Source of the DNA: Herpetosiphon llansteffanensis
GTDB taxonomy: Bacteria > Chloroflexota > Chloroflexia > Chloroflexales > Herpetosiphonaceae
Direction of reading: 5' to 3'
NCBI RefSeq assembly: GCF_003205875.1
Contig: NZ_PUBZ01000089.1
Location: 64,001 to 75,911, forward strand
DNA: 11,911 nt
Part shown: in pieces, positions 3,259-9,970 of the stretch
Layout of the letters: each line of letters opens with the position of its first letter
Position numbering within the stretch: position 1 is the stretch's first letter
Position numbers and translations under genes: made by a program
Notes under the pieces: generated by a model
The model's input: only the letters and a program-made list of their open reading frames with translations
Told to the model about the DNA's origin: nothing
The model's database searches: none

Positions 3259-3463
3259 GACCGTGTGCTCCTTTCAAGCAAAGGTGAATTTCAAACCTCG
3301 GCCACTATAAAGCTAGATAGTCCGAAACAACGTCCTTGCTCACGTCCCAAAGGTCAATAAAAGATTAATAAACGATGAAGTTGGGATGAAGATTGCTGAG
3401 AAACTTAGCTAACAAACTTAATTTTAGCCAAACGACGCATAAACATGGGCAAACAAGCTACAT

Positions 3464-3500
3464 AAAAAGCCCCTCGCACGCTAGGCATGCGAGGGGCTTT
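3464..3500. terminator. Intrinsic terminator serving the minus-strand FTR1 gene; also hairpin-competent on the + strand
   Basis: An A5 run (3464-3468) precedes the stem GCCCCTCGCA (3469-3478), a 9-nt loop, the stem TGCGAGGGGC (3488-3497) and TTT. On the minus-strand RNA the 10-13 bp GC-rich stem is followed by UUUUUAU. It sits 116 nt downstream of the stop at 3616. Confidence 0.6.
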
Positions 3501-3565
3501 AACCCCATGATTGTACCGCAATATGTTGATACATAATGGTCGGCTCCCCCTCGCCCGCGTTCAGT

Positions 3566-3590
3566 GGGAGAGGGGGTTGAGGGTGAGGGG
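3566..3590 (+). other. Canonical G-quadruplex-forming motif (G3+N3G5N4G3N3G4) in the 3' flank of the FTR1 gene
   Basis: The sequence is GGGAGAGGGGGTTGAGGGTGAGGGG, with four G-tracts of 3 or more separated by loops of 3, 4 and 3 nt. A complementary C-tract, CTCCCCCTCGCC, lies at 3544-3555. Confidence 0.4.
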
Positions 3591-3615
3591 ACGTTTGACT
3601 ATAACTCTAAATTAT

Positions 3616-5946
3616 TTACTTGGCAGTGGCACTTTGGCGTTTAACCGCAACATCGGTTTTGCGATGTTGCAAGTGTTCGGCAATCACATACGAGCCAATC
3701 ACGAAGGCCGCAGCTGCCACTTGCGAGGCAATGCCTTCCCACGTTGCGTAGAAGCCCAGCCACATATTGGCCCAATAGGGAATTTCGAGGCTGCGAATTG
3801 GGTGCAATGGCATCCAGCCAACCAATTGCATAATGTGGACCGTGTTGCCAACCATAATCAGCAGCACCGCGCCAATCATCACACCAGTAACGATCAGCAT
3901 CTTCTTATGCGGTAATTTTGCTTGCAAACCAAAGACCAGCACGCCAACCAAGGCCGTGCCGCCAAGCCCCAGTGCCACCCCACCAAGCACCACTTGGGTG
4001 CTGGCTTCGAGCACCAGCGCTTGCAAAAAGAGCACGGTTTCAACGCCTTCGCGATAGATGCTGGTAAAGCCCAAGGTGATCAAGCCCAGCCAAAGCCCAG
4101 CTTTGCCGCCGATAATTCGGCGTTTTTGGGCATGGAAATTGGCCATCCAGCCAGTCCAATAAACTTTGTGAAAAAACCAGTTGGTGATCAACAGCAACAC
4201 ACCAATCGCAATCAACGAAACAATCGCCTCGATCTTTTCTTGATCGCCACGGCGAATTAGTTCATTGATTAGGCCACGTGCCAACATCCAGGTTAGGGCT
4301 GTAGCAACCATAGCGAGGGCTGCGCCAATCCAAATTGGCTTGCGATAGCTGCGTTGTTCGCCAATTTTGAGGCTGGCGAGCAGCGAGGCCAAAATCAACA
4401 CAGCTTCTAAGCCTTCACGGAACACAATCACCGCAGCGCTGGTTGCCACAGCTTCTGGCGTGCTGGAGCCGCCAAGGGCATCTTGCGCCAAATCAAGTTG
4501 TTTATCCAAGGCTTGACGGCTGGCACGAATGTCGCTCAACGACGCTTTTTGGCGAATCAACTCGGCAAGGCCAGTAAATTCGTCTTTGCCATACCAAAAG
4601 AGATTTTCAATTGGGGCTTTGTATTCTGGCGCAAACACAATCAAACGTGCTTCTGGGCCAGATTCGAGCACAGCGTAGGCTTCCAAACGCGCCGATTCAG
4701 CCAGATCGTATTGATCGCCAGCAACCGCATTTTCCATCTGATCAAGCATTGAATCGATCACATCGAAATCGCCTTCGAGGCTCGATTTTTGCCACTCGGC
4801 GGGCATAATTGAGGCCAAGGTTGTGGTAATACTATCGACTTTGGCTTGCACTGCATCAGGATCGGCAACGCTGGTACGTTGGGCCGCAGCAGTCAAAATC
4901 GTTTCAAGATCGCGCAACTCGCCAGCAACTTGCTGGGTTTTGGTCGCATCAATTTCGACCAACAAGCTTTCGAGGTCGCTAAATGCAGCAGCAGCGCCAT
5001 TGCGGAAGGTCGTGGCTTCTTGAATTTCGAGATCAAGCGTTACTTGGCCGTTGCGCACGCCACGTTCATATTCAACTGGCACGAGGCTCAAGAATCGGCG
5101 CAATTGACCAGCACGGCGCACTTGCTCTGATGGGCTTAGTGGAGCTGCGCGAAAGCCGCTGAGCGAGCCTTCAAAGGTCGTAATTGCCGTTTCAAGGTTG
5201 GCGTTGCTCAGCGCTGCTTCGCGCAAGGCTTGGGCATTGGTTAATGCACTATCAGCCTTATCAGGGTATTGCCCACGATACGCTGGCTCTAAAATATTAA
5301 AATAGCCTTGAATTGCCGCGCCGGCCTCTGCTTGTTGAATGCGATTACCTTTTTGGGCGGCGCTGCGCAGAGTACGCAAACTTTCGTTAAGTTTGGCTTG
5401 GTAGGTATCCAACAAATCTGCATCGAGCGCAATGCGGGCATCGGCGGCGCTATAGGCTGCTTGTTTCCATTGCTCGATGGCGCGGGCTGCATCGCCGTTG
5501 GGGCGTGAAAAGCGCGTTGCATTGCGAAACTCGCGCACTGGCAGCCATTGCAAGGCTTGTTCTGGCTTGCCTGTATCGATTGATTGGCCAACGATGCCAT
5601 AGCTGGCTTTGAGCAAATCGATCCAGAGCAACGATCGCTGTTGAGCAAATGCCGCAACATCGTTGGCTTCCAAGGCTTTGGTTAAATCTGCCCAGCGCGT
5701 GGCGATTGTGCTCGCCTGTTGGGGAGCCAAGCTGGTCAAATCTTTGGCGAGGGCTTGATCATACAAGGCTTGGGCTTCGCTGACTAAACGTTTGGCGTTG
5801 GCAGCATCAGTTGTGAGCGATAATTGGGCTTGCACCAACAACGAACGCACCGATTCGCTGGCTTGGGCTGGTGATGGTTCGGCTGCCATGGCAGACCATG
5901 GCAATAAGGCAACGACCAACGCCAGCAAAAAACGACGCAACCACAT
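3616..5946 (-). CDS. FTR1/EfeU-family high-affinity iron permease fused to an N-terminal signal peptide and a ~490-aa extracytoplasmic helical domain
   Basis: The C-terminal ~270 aa has 7 predicted TM helices. REGLE lies in TM1 (encoded at 4405-4419) and REGVE in TM4, which is the FTR1 family's twin RExxE signature. I chose the start at 5946 (MWLRRFLLALVVALLPWSAMA|AEP, a signal peptide) because AGGAG lies 5 nt upstream. The track ORF extends to 6129, but that upstream stretch has no SD and overlaps stem-loops. The N-domain is Ala/Gln/Leu-rich and all-helical. Its C-terminal part (AEWQKSSLEGD ... PIENLFWYGKDEF) resembles the neighbouring lipoprotein (AAWLKSSPTYEQMEG ... PGNLFGVTESTLWG). Confidence 0.8.
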   Translation of the reverse strand: MWLRRFLLALVVALLPWSAMAAEPSPAQASESVRSLLVQAQLSLTTDAANAKRLVSEAQALYDQALAKDLTSLAPQQASTIATRWADLTKALEANDVAAFAQQRSLLWIDLLKASYGIVGQSIDTGKPEQALQWLPVREFRNATRFSRPNGDAARAIEQWKQAAYSAADARIALDADLLDTYQAKLNESLRTLRSAAQKGNRIQQAEAGAAIQGYFNILEPAYRGQYPDKADSALTNAQALREAALSNANLETAITTFEGSLSGFRAAPLSPSEQVRRAGQLRRFLSLVPVEYERGVRNGQVTLDLEIQEATTFRNGAAAAFSDLESLLVEIDATKTQQVAGELRDLETILTAAAQRTSVADPDAVQAKVDSITTTLASIMPAEWQKSSLEGDFDVIDSMLDQMENAVAGDQYDLAESARLEAYAVLESGPEARLIVFAPEYKAPIENLFWYGKDEFTGLAELIRQKASLSDIRASRQALDKQLDLAQDALGGSSTPEAVATSAAVIVFREGLEAVLILASLLASLKIGEQRSYRKPIWIGAALAMVATALTWMLARGLINELIRRGDQEKIEAIVSLIAIGVLLLITNWFFHKVYWTGWMANFHAQKRRIIGGKAGLWLGLITLGFTSIYREGVETVLFLQALVLEASTQVVLGGVALGLGGTALVGVLVFGLQAKLPHKKMLIVTGVMIGAVLLIMVGNTVHIMQLVGWMPLHPIRSLEIPYWANMWLGFYATWEGIASQVAAAAFVIGSYVIAEHLQHRKTDVAVKRQSATAK

Positions 5947-6010
5947 ACAAGCTCCTAAAATTGTGGTTTGCTGCTCCTCACAATGAGCAACAGCAAAATA
6001 AACCGACAAA

Positions 6011-6042
6011 GGACGTGAACTGTATGCCAACAGTTCACGCCC
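6011..6042 (-). terminator. Terminator/attenuator-like hairpin inside the 277-nt spacer between the lipoprotein and permease genes
   Basis: GGACGTGAACTG (6011-6022) pairs with CAGTTCACGCCC (6031-6042), giving a 9-bp perfect core plus 2 bp after one mismatch. On the minus-strand RNA it is followed by UUUGUCGGUUUAUUUUGCUG. Confidence 0.45.
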
Positions 6043-6223
6043 TTTGCTGCTTAAGTTTTGTGATGGAGGGACGCACACCCAAACTCCATCGACCTTGCTC
6101 CGTCGCAACTTCTTTCTCATTGATCGCATAGGTATAACTGTGATACAAGCAGTATACCTATTTTGGTTCGATTTGCGAATCAGTTCGTGAACCGATTTTT
6201 AGCCTAATCCTGTGTTTTTTTGC

Positions 6224-7303
6224 TTACTCGCTGATTTTCACGTTCAAGCGAGCAGCAATTTGGCTGACTTGGCCGGTAATTGCATCAGCACGATTTTGGG
6301 CTTCAGCACCGAGCAAATCGGCTTCTTCAGCAGTAAAGCGTTGGCCAGCTTGTTCTTTTTTGTGCACATCGGCAACAAAATCGCGGAGGCCTTGCAAGTT
6401 GGTCTTGATTTGGCGATCTTGGTCGGCATCGAGGGTGGCAATTTTGGGGCTAAGGCTATCGTAGACAACTTGCAAGCTGCCCAGAATATCGCCAATGTCG
6501 GCCAAGCGTGAGATGGCCACAAAATCGCGTTGGGTGCTGCTATCGCCAGCAACAAAGCGCGAATTCTTCCACGAATCGAAATATTCGTTCATGGTTGGCA
6601 CCATCACGACCAAGGCGCTGAATGCGTCGCTGTCGGTTGGTTCCCACGCTTTGGCGGCGATATCAAGCTCGGTTGCGGTAGCCTTGAGCTTTTGGGCTGC
6701 TGCCAATAAGACATTGGCTTCTGGCAACGATTCGCCAAATTCCACCGTGCCGTTGCCGTTGATGTCTGCTTCAACATCGGTGATGCGGAAGGCATCGTAC
6801 GTGCCCCAGAGCGTGCTTTCGGTTACGCCAAACAAGTTGCCTGGTTTGGCAACCGTGCGGCCATCAGCCAAGCTCAAATCATAATTGACCACGCTATCGC
6901 CGCCTTCTTCTGCAGAAGCACCAGCATCAAGCGTTACGTCGAAATCGGCCAAGCTGCTTACTCCTGCAACGATCCCTTCCATTTGTTCGTAGGTAGGGCT
7001 GGATTTCAACCAAGCTGCTTTGGCATCGTTCAAGGTCGTGCCAACCTCAGCTTGCTTGCTGCGCCAGAGCGTTGCATAATCGAAATTAGCAGCTTTTGCC
7101 AAATCATAATAGCGCTGGCTAGCGGTTTCCAAAGCGGTGGTACTGGTGATCAAATCGCCAGTTTTGCCCAAAAGATAGGTCTTGATTGCGCCAAGTTCGC
7201 CAGCGGCGGCAGCTTGGGTTGGTTGCGTGGTAGGAGCAGCCTGTTCAGCACCACAGCCGAAAAGCACTGCTACGAGAGTTAATGCACAAAGCCAACGATA
7301 CAT
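6224..7303 (-). CDS. Imelysin/EfeO-EfeM-like periplasmic lipoprotein; the His of the HxxE motif is apparently replaced; it contains an EF-hand-like loop
   Basis: I preferred the ATG at 7303 with GGAGG 10 nt upstream; the track's start at 7327 is a TTG. The signal peptide MYRWLCALTLVAVLFGC ends in an LFGC lipobox. The core AAWLKSSPTYEQMEG ...(~45 aa)... GNLFGVTESTLWG (6803-6841) matches the imelysin pattern aW..sP.YE..E ... G.H.iE.LLWG, except that His becomes Gly-Val. DINGNGTVEFGE (6731-6766) fits the canonical 12-residue EF-hand loop. Confidence 0.7.
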   Translation of the reverse strand: MYRWLCALTLVAVLFGCGAEQAAPTTQPTQAAAAGELGAIKTYLLGKTGDLITSTTALETASQRYYDLAKAANFDYATLWRSKQAEVGTTLNDAKAAWLKSSPTYEQMEGIVAGVSSLADFDVTLDAGASAEEGGDSVVNYDLSLADGRTVAKPGNLFGVTESTLWGTYDAFRITDVEADINGNGTVEFGESLPEANVLLAAAQKLKATATELDIAAKAWEPTDSDAFSALVVMVPTMNEYFDSWKNSRFVAGDSSTQRDFVAISRLADIGDILGSLQVVYDSLSPKIATLDADQDRQIKTNLQGLRDFVADVHKKEQAGQRFTAEEADLLGAEAQNRADAITGQVSQIAARLNVKISE

Positions 7304-7380
7304 GAGCCAGAAACCTCCAAATGCCAAGGTCTAGTTAAATCTGTTAGTACGGAAAAAACTGTTTTTATTGTGATTGGCAG

Positions 7381-7409
7381 AGTATACGTCGCGCTATTGG
7401 TTCTGTCAA
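7381..7409 (-). promoter_or_regulatory. Sigma70-type promoter of the lipoprotein-FTR1 operon
   Basis: On the minus strand TTGACA (complement of 7404-7409) is followed by a 17-nt spacer and TATACT (complement of 7381-7386). This puts the TSS near 7374 and gives a ~70-nt leader to the ATG at 7303. Confidence 0.55.
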
Positions 7410-7412
7410 ACG

Positions 7413-7423
7413 AGAATGATTCT
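7413..7423. promoter_or_regulatory. 5-1-5 palindrome AGAAT-G-ATTCT abutting the -35 element; candidate operator with weak Fur-box-like half (GAGAATGAT)
   Basis: It is a perfect inverted repeat 4 nt upstream of the -35, centred near -44 relative to the predicted TSS. It lies in the divergent intergenic region shared with the CNNM gene. Confidence 0.3.
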
Positions 7424-9644: not shown

Positions 9645-9881
9645 ATGCGCAAACACATGTTGGCTAGCCTTGTTGTGCTAGCACTCTTGGCTGGTTGTTC
9701 AACCACCGGTTCAGCTCCAACCACTGCTCCGGTTAACAACCAACCAACCAATCCGGCCCCAGCCCAAACTCCTGCAACCTACCCAACGCCAGCAGATGGC
9801 AACGTGGTTGTTGAGCCAACCTTGGAGCCAGGCCAATACCCAGTGCCTAACTCGCAACCAACGGCCTACCCAACTCCCTAG
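9645..9881 (+). CDS. Small (78 aa) Pro/Thr/Gln-rich secreted lipoprotein
   Basis: GGAGG at 9631-9635 sits 9 nt before the ATG. The signal peptide MRKHMLASLVVLALLAGC has a canonical LAGC lipobox. The mature part is low-complexity, with the motif YPTP recurring (PATYPTPADG ... PTAYPTP). Confidence 0.55.
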   Translation: MRKHMLASLVVLALLAGCSTTGSAPTTAPVNNQPTNPAPAQTPATYPTPADGNVVVEPTLEPGQYPVPNSQPTAYPTP

Positions 9882-9937: not shown

Positions 9938-9970
9938 GAAACGTGGGTGTCCCCCACGTTTCTTCTTGTC
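9938..9970 (+). terminator. Terminator-like hairpin in the nusA leader (candidate autoregulatory attenuator), or the terminator of the upstream lipoprotein gene
   Basis: GAAACGTGGG (9938-9947) pairs perfectly with CCCACGTTTC (9953-9962), a 10-bp stem with a 5-nt loop. An interrupted U-tract UUCUUGUC follows. The hairpin sits at about +19 from the predicted TSS and ~95 nt upstream of the nusA ATG. Confidence 0.5.

Follow-up and report, generated by a model that had tools for sequence, protein, structure and literature searches.

In Escherichia coli, constitutive leaky terminators inside the rplL-rpoB and rpsU-dnaG operons reduce transcription of the distal gene. Hairpins can also act on stability: the malE-malF and hisJ-hisQ REP hairpins of E. 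coli, like the pufA-pufL hairpins of Rhodobacter capsulatus, are stable structures between a strongly expressed upstream and weakly expressed downstream cistrons that shield the upstream segment from 3' exonucleases. REP elements are repeats present in many copies per genome. In Clostridia, internal terminators after substrate-binding-protein genes set transporter stoichiometry; they have long stems and U-tracts paired to 5' A's, and some carry mid-stem mismatches that tune their efficiency (PMC9045158).

The locus described here, a spacer between the two genes of a Herpetosiphon iron-uptake pair with one dominant hairpin (H3), most resembles the ABC importer operons of Ruminiclostridium cellulolyticum (PMC9045158). 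In both, a stem-loop lies between a binding-protein gene and a translocator gene, the stem is long, 5' A's pair with part of the U-tract, and the mid-stem mismatch of some R. cellulolyticum variants has a counterpart as well. The proposed outcome is also the same, an excess of binding-protein transcript, which for Herpetosiphon is a prediction from sequence. The two differ in that the genes here belong to an EfeO/imelysin-FTR1 system of Chloroflexi rather than to an ABC importer, and in that H3 lies amid six other conserved helices. Its position differs too, and this counts against a leaky stop: H3 lies ~177 nt past the stop codon, whereas the Clostridium hairpins lie directly behind the binding-protein gene. 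The rplL-rpoB and rpsU-dnaG attenuators concern other genes in another taxon. Unlike E. coli REP, the core of H3 occurs only once in H. aurantiacus, and the sequence conservation of the spacer is far above what is usual for REP or puf elements. The element is plausibly a genus-restricted intercistronic array of terminator or stabiliser hairpins in a transporter operon, real but ordinary and of a kind already known.

The spacer occupies positions 5947..6223 on the minus strand of the window (the whole 11,911-nt stretch of DNA that was analysed, to which all positions refer). The upstream cistron (6224..7303, minus strand, stop codon at 6226..6224) encodes an imelysin/EfeO-EfeM-type lipoprotein of 359 aa, starting at MYRWLC and with the lipobox LFGCG. 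Its product matched imelysin (Pfam PF09375, E = 4.9e-19) and was 99% identical to an EfeM/EfeO family lipoprotein of Herpetosiphon llansteffanensis; the spacer differed from the H. llansteffanensis genome at one base. The downstream cistron (3616..5946, minus strand) begins with an ATG at 5946..5944 behind the Shine-Dalgarno sequence AGGAG (5956..5952) and encodes an FTR1-family iron permease of 776 aa with the signal peptide MWLRRFLLALVVALLPWSAMA. Residues 503-699 of this protein correspond to FTR1 (Pfam PF03239), and the long N-terminal part is without a Pfam match. On the evidence of both Pfam matches and of the adjacency of the two genes in 61 distant relatives, the assignment of the imelysin/EfeO-like lipoprotein and the FTR1 permease to one iron-uptake pair is supported. 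The gene boundaries and the 277-nt spacer hold as the original prediction had given them.

Upstream of the lipoprotein gene we found a candidate operon promoter on the minus strand (TTGACA-17-TATACT, 7381..7409) with 11 of 12 consensus matches, and both of its hexamers were unchanged across seven species. The palindrome AGAATCATTCT (7413..7423, minus strand) adjoins the -35 hexamer and is a candidate operator of the operon; in the same number of species it was unchanged except for its central base, which was C or G. A search of the spacer for a second copy of this promoter-proximal palindrome, AGAATNATTCT, found none. At the other end of the operon, ~120 nt past the permease stop, lies a canonical intrinsic terminator (AAAGCCCCUCGCAUGC-CUA-GCGUGCGAGGGGCUUUUUAUG, 3462..3499, minus strand) with a UUUUU tail and a folding energy of -30.8 kcal/mol (z = -6.2). 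A near-consensus promoter is present only upstream of the lipoprotein gene, and a canonical terminator only after the permease gene.

As minus-strand RNA, the whole spacer folded to -104 kcal/mol compared with -78 +/- 5.5 for dinucleotide-shuffled sequences (z = -4.7), a value that none of 100 shuffles equalled. The plus strand gave a similar z of -4.6. Both strands fold alike, as hairpins should, and strand assignment therefore requires comparative data. The three stem-loops that had been pointed out at 6011-6042, 6128-6161 and 5969-5997 were all present, and the strong folding anticipated for the minus-strand RNA was borne out. Four further helices, H0, h, H2 and H5, were found in addition. 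At the 5' end of the RNA, H0 is a weak 5-bp hairpin (UGAUU-CGCA-AAUCG, 6169..6182, minus strand; RNAalifold, alignment columns 53-57/62-66) whose closing pair covaries between GC, UA and UG. It is followed by H1 (UAGGUAUACUG...CAGUUAUACCUA, 6129..6160, minus strand, -9.4 kcal/mol), which corresponds to the second stem-loop of the original prediction, ATAGGTATA/TATACCTAT. One of its pairs (78/103) occurs as G-C, G-U and A-U, and its loop is variable, with a 5-nt deletion in H. geysericola. The small hairpin h (UUGC-GACGGA-GCAA, 6095..6108, minus strand; RNAalifold 127-130/137-140) was 100% paired in the alignment with one G-U change. H2 (GAUGGAG-bulge-GGG...UCC-CUCCAUC, 6062..6090, minus strand, -9.7 kcal/mol) showed two one-sided changes, each yielding G-U, and its loop takes the 3-nt insertion of orthologue L156.

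Between H3 and the permease start lie H4 and H5. H4 (UGCUGUU-G-CUCA...UGAG-G-AGCAGCA, 5969..5995, minus strand, -14.4 kcal/mol) is the third stem-loop, predicted as TTGCTGCTC/GAGCAACAGCAA (5969-5997); its pair 251/261 changes from C-G to U-A in two sequences and its loop is fully variable. H5 forms by pairing of AACCACA with UGUGGUU (5939..5968, minus strand; RNAalifold 270-276/293-299; -5.6 kcal/mol). The Shine-Dalgarno AGGAG lies in its loop and its 3' arm takes in the U and G of the start codon. A C-G pair of H5 becomes U-G in five sequences, and the two outer pairs are missing in orthologues L159 and L160.

H3 is the dominant structure of the spacer and the longest inverted repeat of the 11.9-kb window. 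A terminator scan placed it at 6006..6047 (minus strand) as a terminator-like 18-bp hairpin, GCAAAGGGCGUGAACUGU-UGGCAU-ACAGUUCACGUCCUUUGU. The stem-loop originally described, GGACGTGAACTG/CAGTTCACGCCC (6011-6042), is present but was drawn too small, being the core of the larger hairpin that runs from 6047 to 6006. The stem-loop alone folded to -29.4 kcal/mol and with its flanks to -32.2 kcal/mol (z = -6.0). All 12 orthologues have it, with energies from -25.1 to -29.4 kcal/mol, and eight of its 18 base pairs are G-C, giving the stable, G+C-containing stem-loop of intrinsic terminators. The loop never varies and the 5' arm hardly does, its two variable columns of 18 lying at the stem base. Five of the 12 sequences carry an A-G mismatch at one stem position, which counts against a leaky stop.

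We compared the sequence behind H3 with that of other terminators. In the window, the minus strand reads CGGUUUAUUUUG after H3, and the U-rich tail CGGUUUAUUU(U) spans 5996..6005 (minus strand), with the final stem bases UUUG belonging to the same U-rich run. At the base of the 18-bp stem the 5' AAA pairs with the 3' UUU. H3 (AAA-stem-UUUGUCGGUUUAUUUU) is preceded by an A-tract and followed by a U-tract with interruptions. Beyond the G+C-rich stem portion the RNA sequence is UUUGUCGGUUUAUUUU for the window and UUUGUCGGUUUACUAU for H. aurantiacus, and only three proximal U's are consecutive. After H3, the aurantiacus clade has the tail CGGUUUACUAUG and L159 has GAGUUUAUUAUG, and most other species have fewer distal U's. 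Within the window, the terminator at the end of the DoxX gene has a stem and a similar tail, UUUGCAUUUU, and a hairpin at 9938-9962 (GAAACGUGGG...CCCACGUUUC) is followed by UUCUUG. Judged by sequence layout, H3 resembles these gene-end terminators. Of the original claim of an intrinsic terminator or attenuator, the likeness of H3 to local gene-end terminators is supported; the U-rich tract is present in the window but poorer in other species. A tract of three U's, poorer still in most species, counts against a leaky stop, whose efficiency could approach zero. Among the promoter-like matches in the spacer, no convincing one was found between H3 and the permease gene. The sole promoter-like site of the spacer lies upstream of H3, so every permease transcript would pass H3, and since these transcripts must cross it, H3 could be only a partial, leaky stop. 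A full-text literature search gave no Herpetosiphon transcriptome paper among the matches listed.

Twelve distinct orthologous spacers (261-278 nt) served to examine conservation; they came from several metagenome assemblies and from H. llansteffanensis, H. aurantiacus, H. giganteus, H. geysericola and H. gulosus. The two main clades had an identity of 0.82-0.90 over the 3' 174 nt, compared with 0.55-0.71 at four-fold degenerate sites of the flanking genes and 0.58-0.64 over the 5' 103 nt; in summary figures, the 3' 174 nt reached 89% and the four-fold sites 56-68%. The region downstream of the operon, including the surroundings of the operon-end terminator, had a mean column identity of 59% and many indels. 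Because its identity exceeds that of both the four-fold sites and the post-operon region, the 3' two-thirds of the spacer is under purifying selection. The same rate contrast rules out an inert relic.

The pattern within the spacer follows the helices. RNAalifold found seven local helices common to the 12 sequences (H0, H1, h, H2, H3, H4 and H5), and standard pairs made up 98.2% of the 768 pair cells. Compensatory double changes were present in three pairs, one each in H0, H1 and H4, and the covariation score was 0.084 compared with at most 0.040 for controls in which the partners were slid by 1-3 columns. Between 11 and 33% of columns varied in the arms of H1-H4, and 40-100% in most linkers and loops (78% in the H1 loop, 93% in the H2-H3 linker and 100% in the H4 loop); the H3 loop, which is invariant, and the loop that holds the Shine-Dalgarno sequence, which is nearly so, depart from this. 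The covariation looked for in orthologous spacers was therefore present: stems are kept, linkers vary and three pairs change in a compensatory manner. Changes on one side of a pair nearly always yielded G-U on the sense strand. Read in the sense direction, 74 cells were G-U compared with two in the antisense direction, a count somewhat biased because the sense strand had supplied the structure, and overall pairing was 98.2% in sense and 88.8% in antisense. Despite that bias, so large an asymmetry has hardly another explanation than that the selected object is the operon-strand RNA and no DNA palindrome. By these comparative criteria the spacer is a selected RNA structure within the operon mRNA.

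The stretch 6123..6062 was almost invariant. Within it, about a third of the columns varied in the mostly unpaired part 6123..6091. In the well-conserved and mostly unpaired GAGAAAGAAGUUGCGACGGAGCAAGGU, five of 27 columns were variable. In the H3 loop, the H3 5' arm and 6123..6091, conservation is stricter than an ordinary terminator needs, and the operon-end terminator itself is not conserved. One explanation for this strictness is stabilising selection on a tuned termination efficiency. Another, a specific trans-acting partner, we regard as unlikely.

Outside the genus the gap is usually short. The lipoprotein and permease genes were adjacent in 61 metagenomic relatives outside Herpetosiphon, with an approximate median gap of 27 nt and often ~5 nt, and only four of these gaps were at least 254 nt long. 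Among 79 metagenomic imelysin loci, including these 61 with adjacent FTR1, neither nhmmer with the spacer alignment as query nor a covariance model (R1) built on H2-H3-H4 found the element outside Herpetosiphon, and nhmmer on 60 further loci returned only three Herpetosiphon loci and marginal palindrome matches. By this distribution, the element is an insertion specific to the genus, in an operon whose genes were ancestrally close together. The H3 core pattern, GCGTGAACTG-N4-8-CAGKTCACGY, matched once in the complete 6.35-Mb genome of H. aurantiacus and once each in H. geysericola and H. giganteus; the ~57 other matches were scattered, unrelated palindromes from other phyla. A repeat of the REP or MITE type was rejected on the single copy in H. 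aurantiacus, by an exact-pattern test that diverged copies would escape. In other lineages, unrelated and very stable hairpins (z <= -4, rough shuffles) occupy the same gap in many cases, among them loci L017, L022, L026, L028, L034, L035, L084 and L093. L017, for example, has a perfect 18-bp GC-rich hairpin, and a U-tract follows some of these hairpins and is absent from others. A hairpin at this position has thus arisen repeatedly.

With moderate confidence, and on the basis of these sequence comparisons, we read the element as a leaky internal terminator and/or a 3' stabiliser that would uncouple lipoprotein and permease levels. The nearest competitor, which we consider rather unlikely, is that the hairpins do not terminate at all and are only determinants of RNase processing and stability, giving the segments of the operon mRNA different half-lives in the manner of the malE-malF REP or puf hairpins. 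It agrees with the hairpins of L017, L024 and L026, which fill the same gap without a U-tract, and with the U-run after H3, which is short and degraded in most species; H4 would then be the protective 5' hairpin of a processed permease message. That gap hairpins of other lineages often have no U-tract likewise favours stability or processing over termination. However, H3 has the A-tract, stem and U-tract layout of the local gene-end terminators. This alternative and the terminator/stabiliser reading differ only in the step that makes the 3' end, on which the sequence cannot separate them. An improbable alternative places a separate transcription unit in the spacer, with a promoter at 6179..6151 that drives the permease gene behind a 195-nt structured leader, or a small RNA of ~140 nt that ends at H3. 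The site (TTCGCA-17-TATACT, 6151..6179, minus strand) has 9 of 12 consensus matches and keeps its 17-nt spacing in all 12 orthologues, and small RNA genes are typically built in this way, from a promoter, ~140 nt and a terminator hairpin. But matches of such strength occur in the window at about the chance rate (13 found, 10.3 expected), and the hexamers differ between species (TTAACA, TTCGTA or TTCGCG; TATGCT or TATTCT), the third -35 base never being G. The site overlaps the loop of H0 and the 5' arm of H1. Where its hexamers are conserved, the stems of H0 and H1 account for it, their opposite arms being just as conserved. H1 moreover evolves via G-U pairs, and selection as RNA therefore already acts upstream of the putative start. 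By comparison, the true operon promoter is near-consensus and invariant, and the site at 6151..6179 is probably not a promoter.

The strict conservation would fit a regulated leader, in which the conserved 174 nt act as a signal-responsive attenuator (a riboswitch, or a binding site for a protein or sRNA) that switches termination at H3 or occlusion of the start codon by H5 according to iron or some other signal. We think this unlikely. The invariant H3 loop and the limited variation of 6123..6091 go beyond what a plain hairpin requires, and the spacer, lying before a transporter gene, shows the order usual for riboswitch expression platforms (a terminator plus a helix that sequesters the ribosome-binding site), with a terminator-like hairpin and then a helix in contact with the start codon. 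Unlike such platforms, the spacer has no aptamer, no Rfam match and no conserved antiterminator, and it is confined to a single genus. At the gathering score, no Rfam family was matched anywhere in the window, and at E <= 10 there was only noise in 5800-6400 (best E = 0.13, 25.6 bits compared with a gathering score of 50). No conserved antiterminator or anti-sequestrator pairing of either H3 arm was found with RNAalifold on truncated sub-alignments or in constrained folds of the window, and a tRNA/tmRNA scan found none. The architecture is one of separate hairpins with freely varying linkers, without a multi-helix junction carrying conserved unpaired bases, and the candidate operator lies at the operon promoter, with none in the spacer. 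The earlier suggestion of a riboswitch or metal-responsive RNA therefore finds no backing in family matches, alternative pairing, architecture or distribution. Strict conservation also counts against a plain terminator, a more specific function being conceivable. We give a low probability, slightly below that of the regulated leader, to the block at ~6123..5949 being a genus-specific regulatory RNA, either a trans-acting intra-operonic sRNA (H1 to H3) or an attenuator by which iron supply, through a protein or sRNA, controls permease synthesis; the H3 loop UGGCAU and the stretch GAGAAAGAAGUUGCGACGGAGCAAGGU would then be recognition sequences. Very improbable is the absence of any functional RNA, with the spacer a DNA operator built on CGTGAAC, an inert relic of a mobile palindrome or an N-terminal coding extension of the permease. 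For it speak the three occurrences of CGTGAAC, the state of the spacer as an insertion relative to other Chloroflexi, and a frame open to 6129 that is used in some public annotations with permeases of 797-835 aa. The recurrence of CGTGAAC, noted originally as a hint of a protein operator, is real but weak: its three copies in the window all lie in the spacer (6014, 6033 as complement, and 6186), two of them are the two arms of H3, and 21 of 200 shuffles contained at least three matches. The operator itself did not hold up, since the third site (6186-6192) reads GTTCACG, GTTCGCG, GTTCCCG or GTTCGTG across species and the stems change through G-U pairs, which are mismatches in DNA. A relic is opposed by the strong purifying selection, the G-U asymmetry and the single copy of the hairpin core in H. 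aurantiacus, and a coding extension by the substitution pattern given below. An IdeR/DtxR-like sequence, TTAGGCTAA, at 6201..6209 was also rejected, by eye only; H. aurantiacus lacks it, and the 5' part in which it lies evolves neutrally.

Under the favoured reading of a leaky terminator and/or stabiliser, the spacer would be transcribed within a single imelysin-FTR1 operon mRNA and fold into a string of independent hairpins, H0-H5. A fraction of RNA polymerases would terminate at H3, acting as a leaky internal stop, and any 3' end there would be shielded from 3' exonucleases, so that lipoprotein transcripts would outnumber and outlive permease transcripts. On the read-through RNA, H4 and H5 would probably tune initiation of permease translation and 5' stability. 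The net outcome would be a fixed excess of the periplasmic iron-binding lipoprotein over the membrane permease. Because the two genes form an operon pair, the RNA is conserved on the sense strand and H3 resembles gene-end terminators, the setting of the lipoprotein:permease ratio, as first proposed, is the most economical reading; termination, stabilisation and the effect on the ratio would each follow from it. If it is true, this Chloroflexi EfeO/imelysin-FTR1 importer shares with ABC importers the leaky-hairpin route to excess binding protein, and the stoichiometry rule would reach a further class of transporters and a further phylum. In practical terms the gain is modest, namely a well-defined and strongly conserved RNA element for Term-seq in Herpetosiphon, and the finding opens no long-standing question.

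The comparison also bears on the start of the permease. Its frame is open upstream to 6129 in the window, and some public gene calls start upstream of the ATG, giving proteins of 820, 797 and 835 aa. We considered an N-terminal extension or a leader peptide and rejected both. Orthologues L159 and L160 have an in-frame stop 19 codons before the ATG, and for a longer extension from 6129 a 1-nt indel upstream of the GTG breaks the frame in the aurantiacus clade. In the 44 codons that precede the ATG, ten nonsynonymous and two synonymous changes separate the window from H. aurantiacus, and the relative L017, outside the genus, begins at the equivalent signal peptide. A leader peptide from the ATG/GTG at 6129 would be without a Shine-Dalgarno sequence. 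The in-frame stop, the frame-shifting indel, the 10:2 ratio of nonsynonymous to synonymous changes and the start of L017 together show that the spacer is not coding. The permease start is fixed at 5946, and several public annotations run 21-59 codons too far into the spacer.

The -35 hexamer of the promoter candidate for the imelysin-FTR1 operon (window 7381-7409, minus strand) is immediately preceded by an 11-bp palindrome, AGAATCATTCT (7413-7423, minus strand), that abuts the promoter and is unchanged across seven Herpetosiphon species save for its central base, which is either C or G. Its core, AATCATT, is similar to the centre of the Fur box. The palindrome is a candidate operator for a putative iron regulator of the operon. 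Downstream of the promoter, the ~70-80-nt 5′ UTR of the lipoprotein gene shows almost no variation over its entire length when the species are compared, and within it lies a second conserved palindrome of the form A5C-N-GT6 (AAAAACAGTTTTTT, 7352-7365, minus strand).

Further palindromic elements were found after the permease gene and in the gap between the imelysin and FTR1 genes. A C-rich/G-rich palindromic element, CCCCTCACCCTCAACCCCCTCTCCC...GGGCGAGGGGGAG, is positioned 3′ of the permease gene in the window (~3535-3592, minus strand) and is also present in the orthologous Herpetosiphon locus L002 (6680-6780); H. aurantiacus has two copies and H. geysericola none. In L034, an unrelated metagenomic locus, the imelysin-FTR1 gap is occupied by a sequence resembling it. 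The element looks like a mobile REP-like repeat. In two related metagenomic operons, L026 and L028, the same gap contains perfect ~40-nt palindromes of the type GTTCGTTTTTTCGCTC-NNN-GAGCGAAAAAACGAAC, with one copy in L026 (spacer after 1321) and two in L028 (spacer after 1612). These copies suggest that the imelysin-FTR1 gap is a site of repeated palindromic-element insertion.

The public permease gene calls in three orthologous Herpetosiphon loci start 21-59 codons early, within the structured spacer, giving proteins of 820 aa (L002, 4216-6678), 797 aa (L008, 1663-4056) and 835 aa (L156, 2675 onward) versus 776 aa. Comparative data assign the start to the ATG equivalent to window position 5946. 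When relatives were searched by tblastn, conservation of the permease N-terminal region began at residue 1 in most of those from Chloroflexi. This extracytoplasmic region spans ~480 residues (window ~4440-5946, minus strand), and a Pfam search returned no match within it.

Elsewhere in the window, a small ORF (9645-9881, plus strand) lies between nusA and a GNAT acetyltransferase gene; every Herpetosiphon locus has a gene call for it, at 76-79 aa. Its product had no match in a Pfam search; 3′ of the ORF lies a clean terminator-like hairpin (9938-9962, plus strand).
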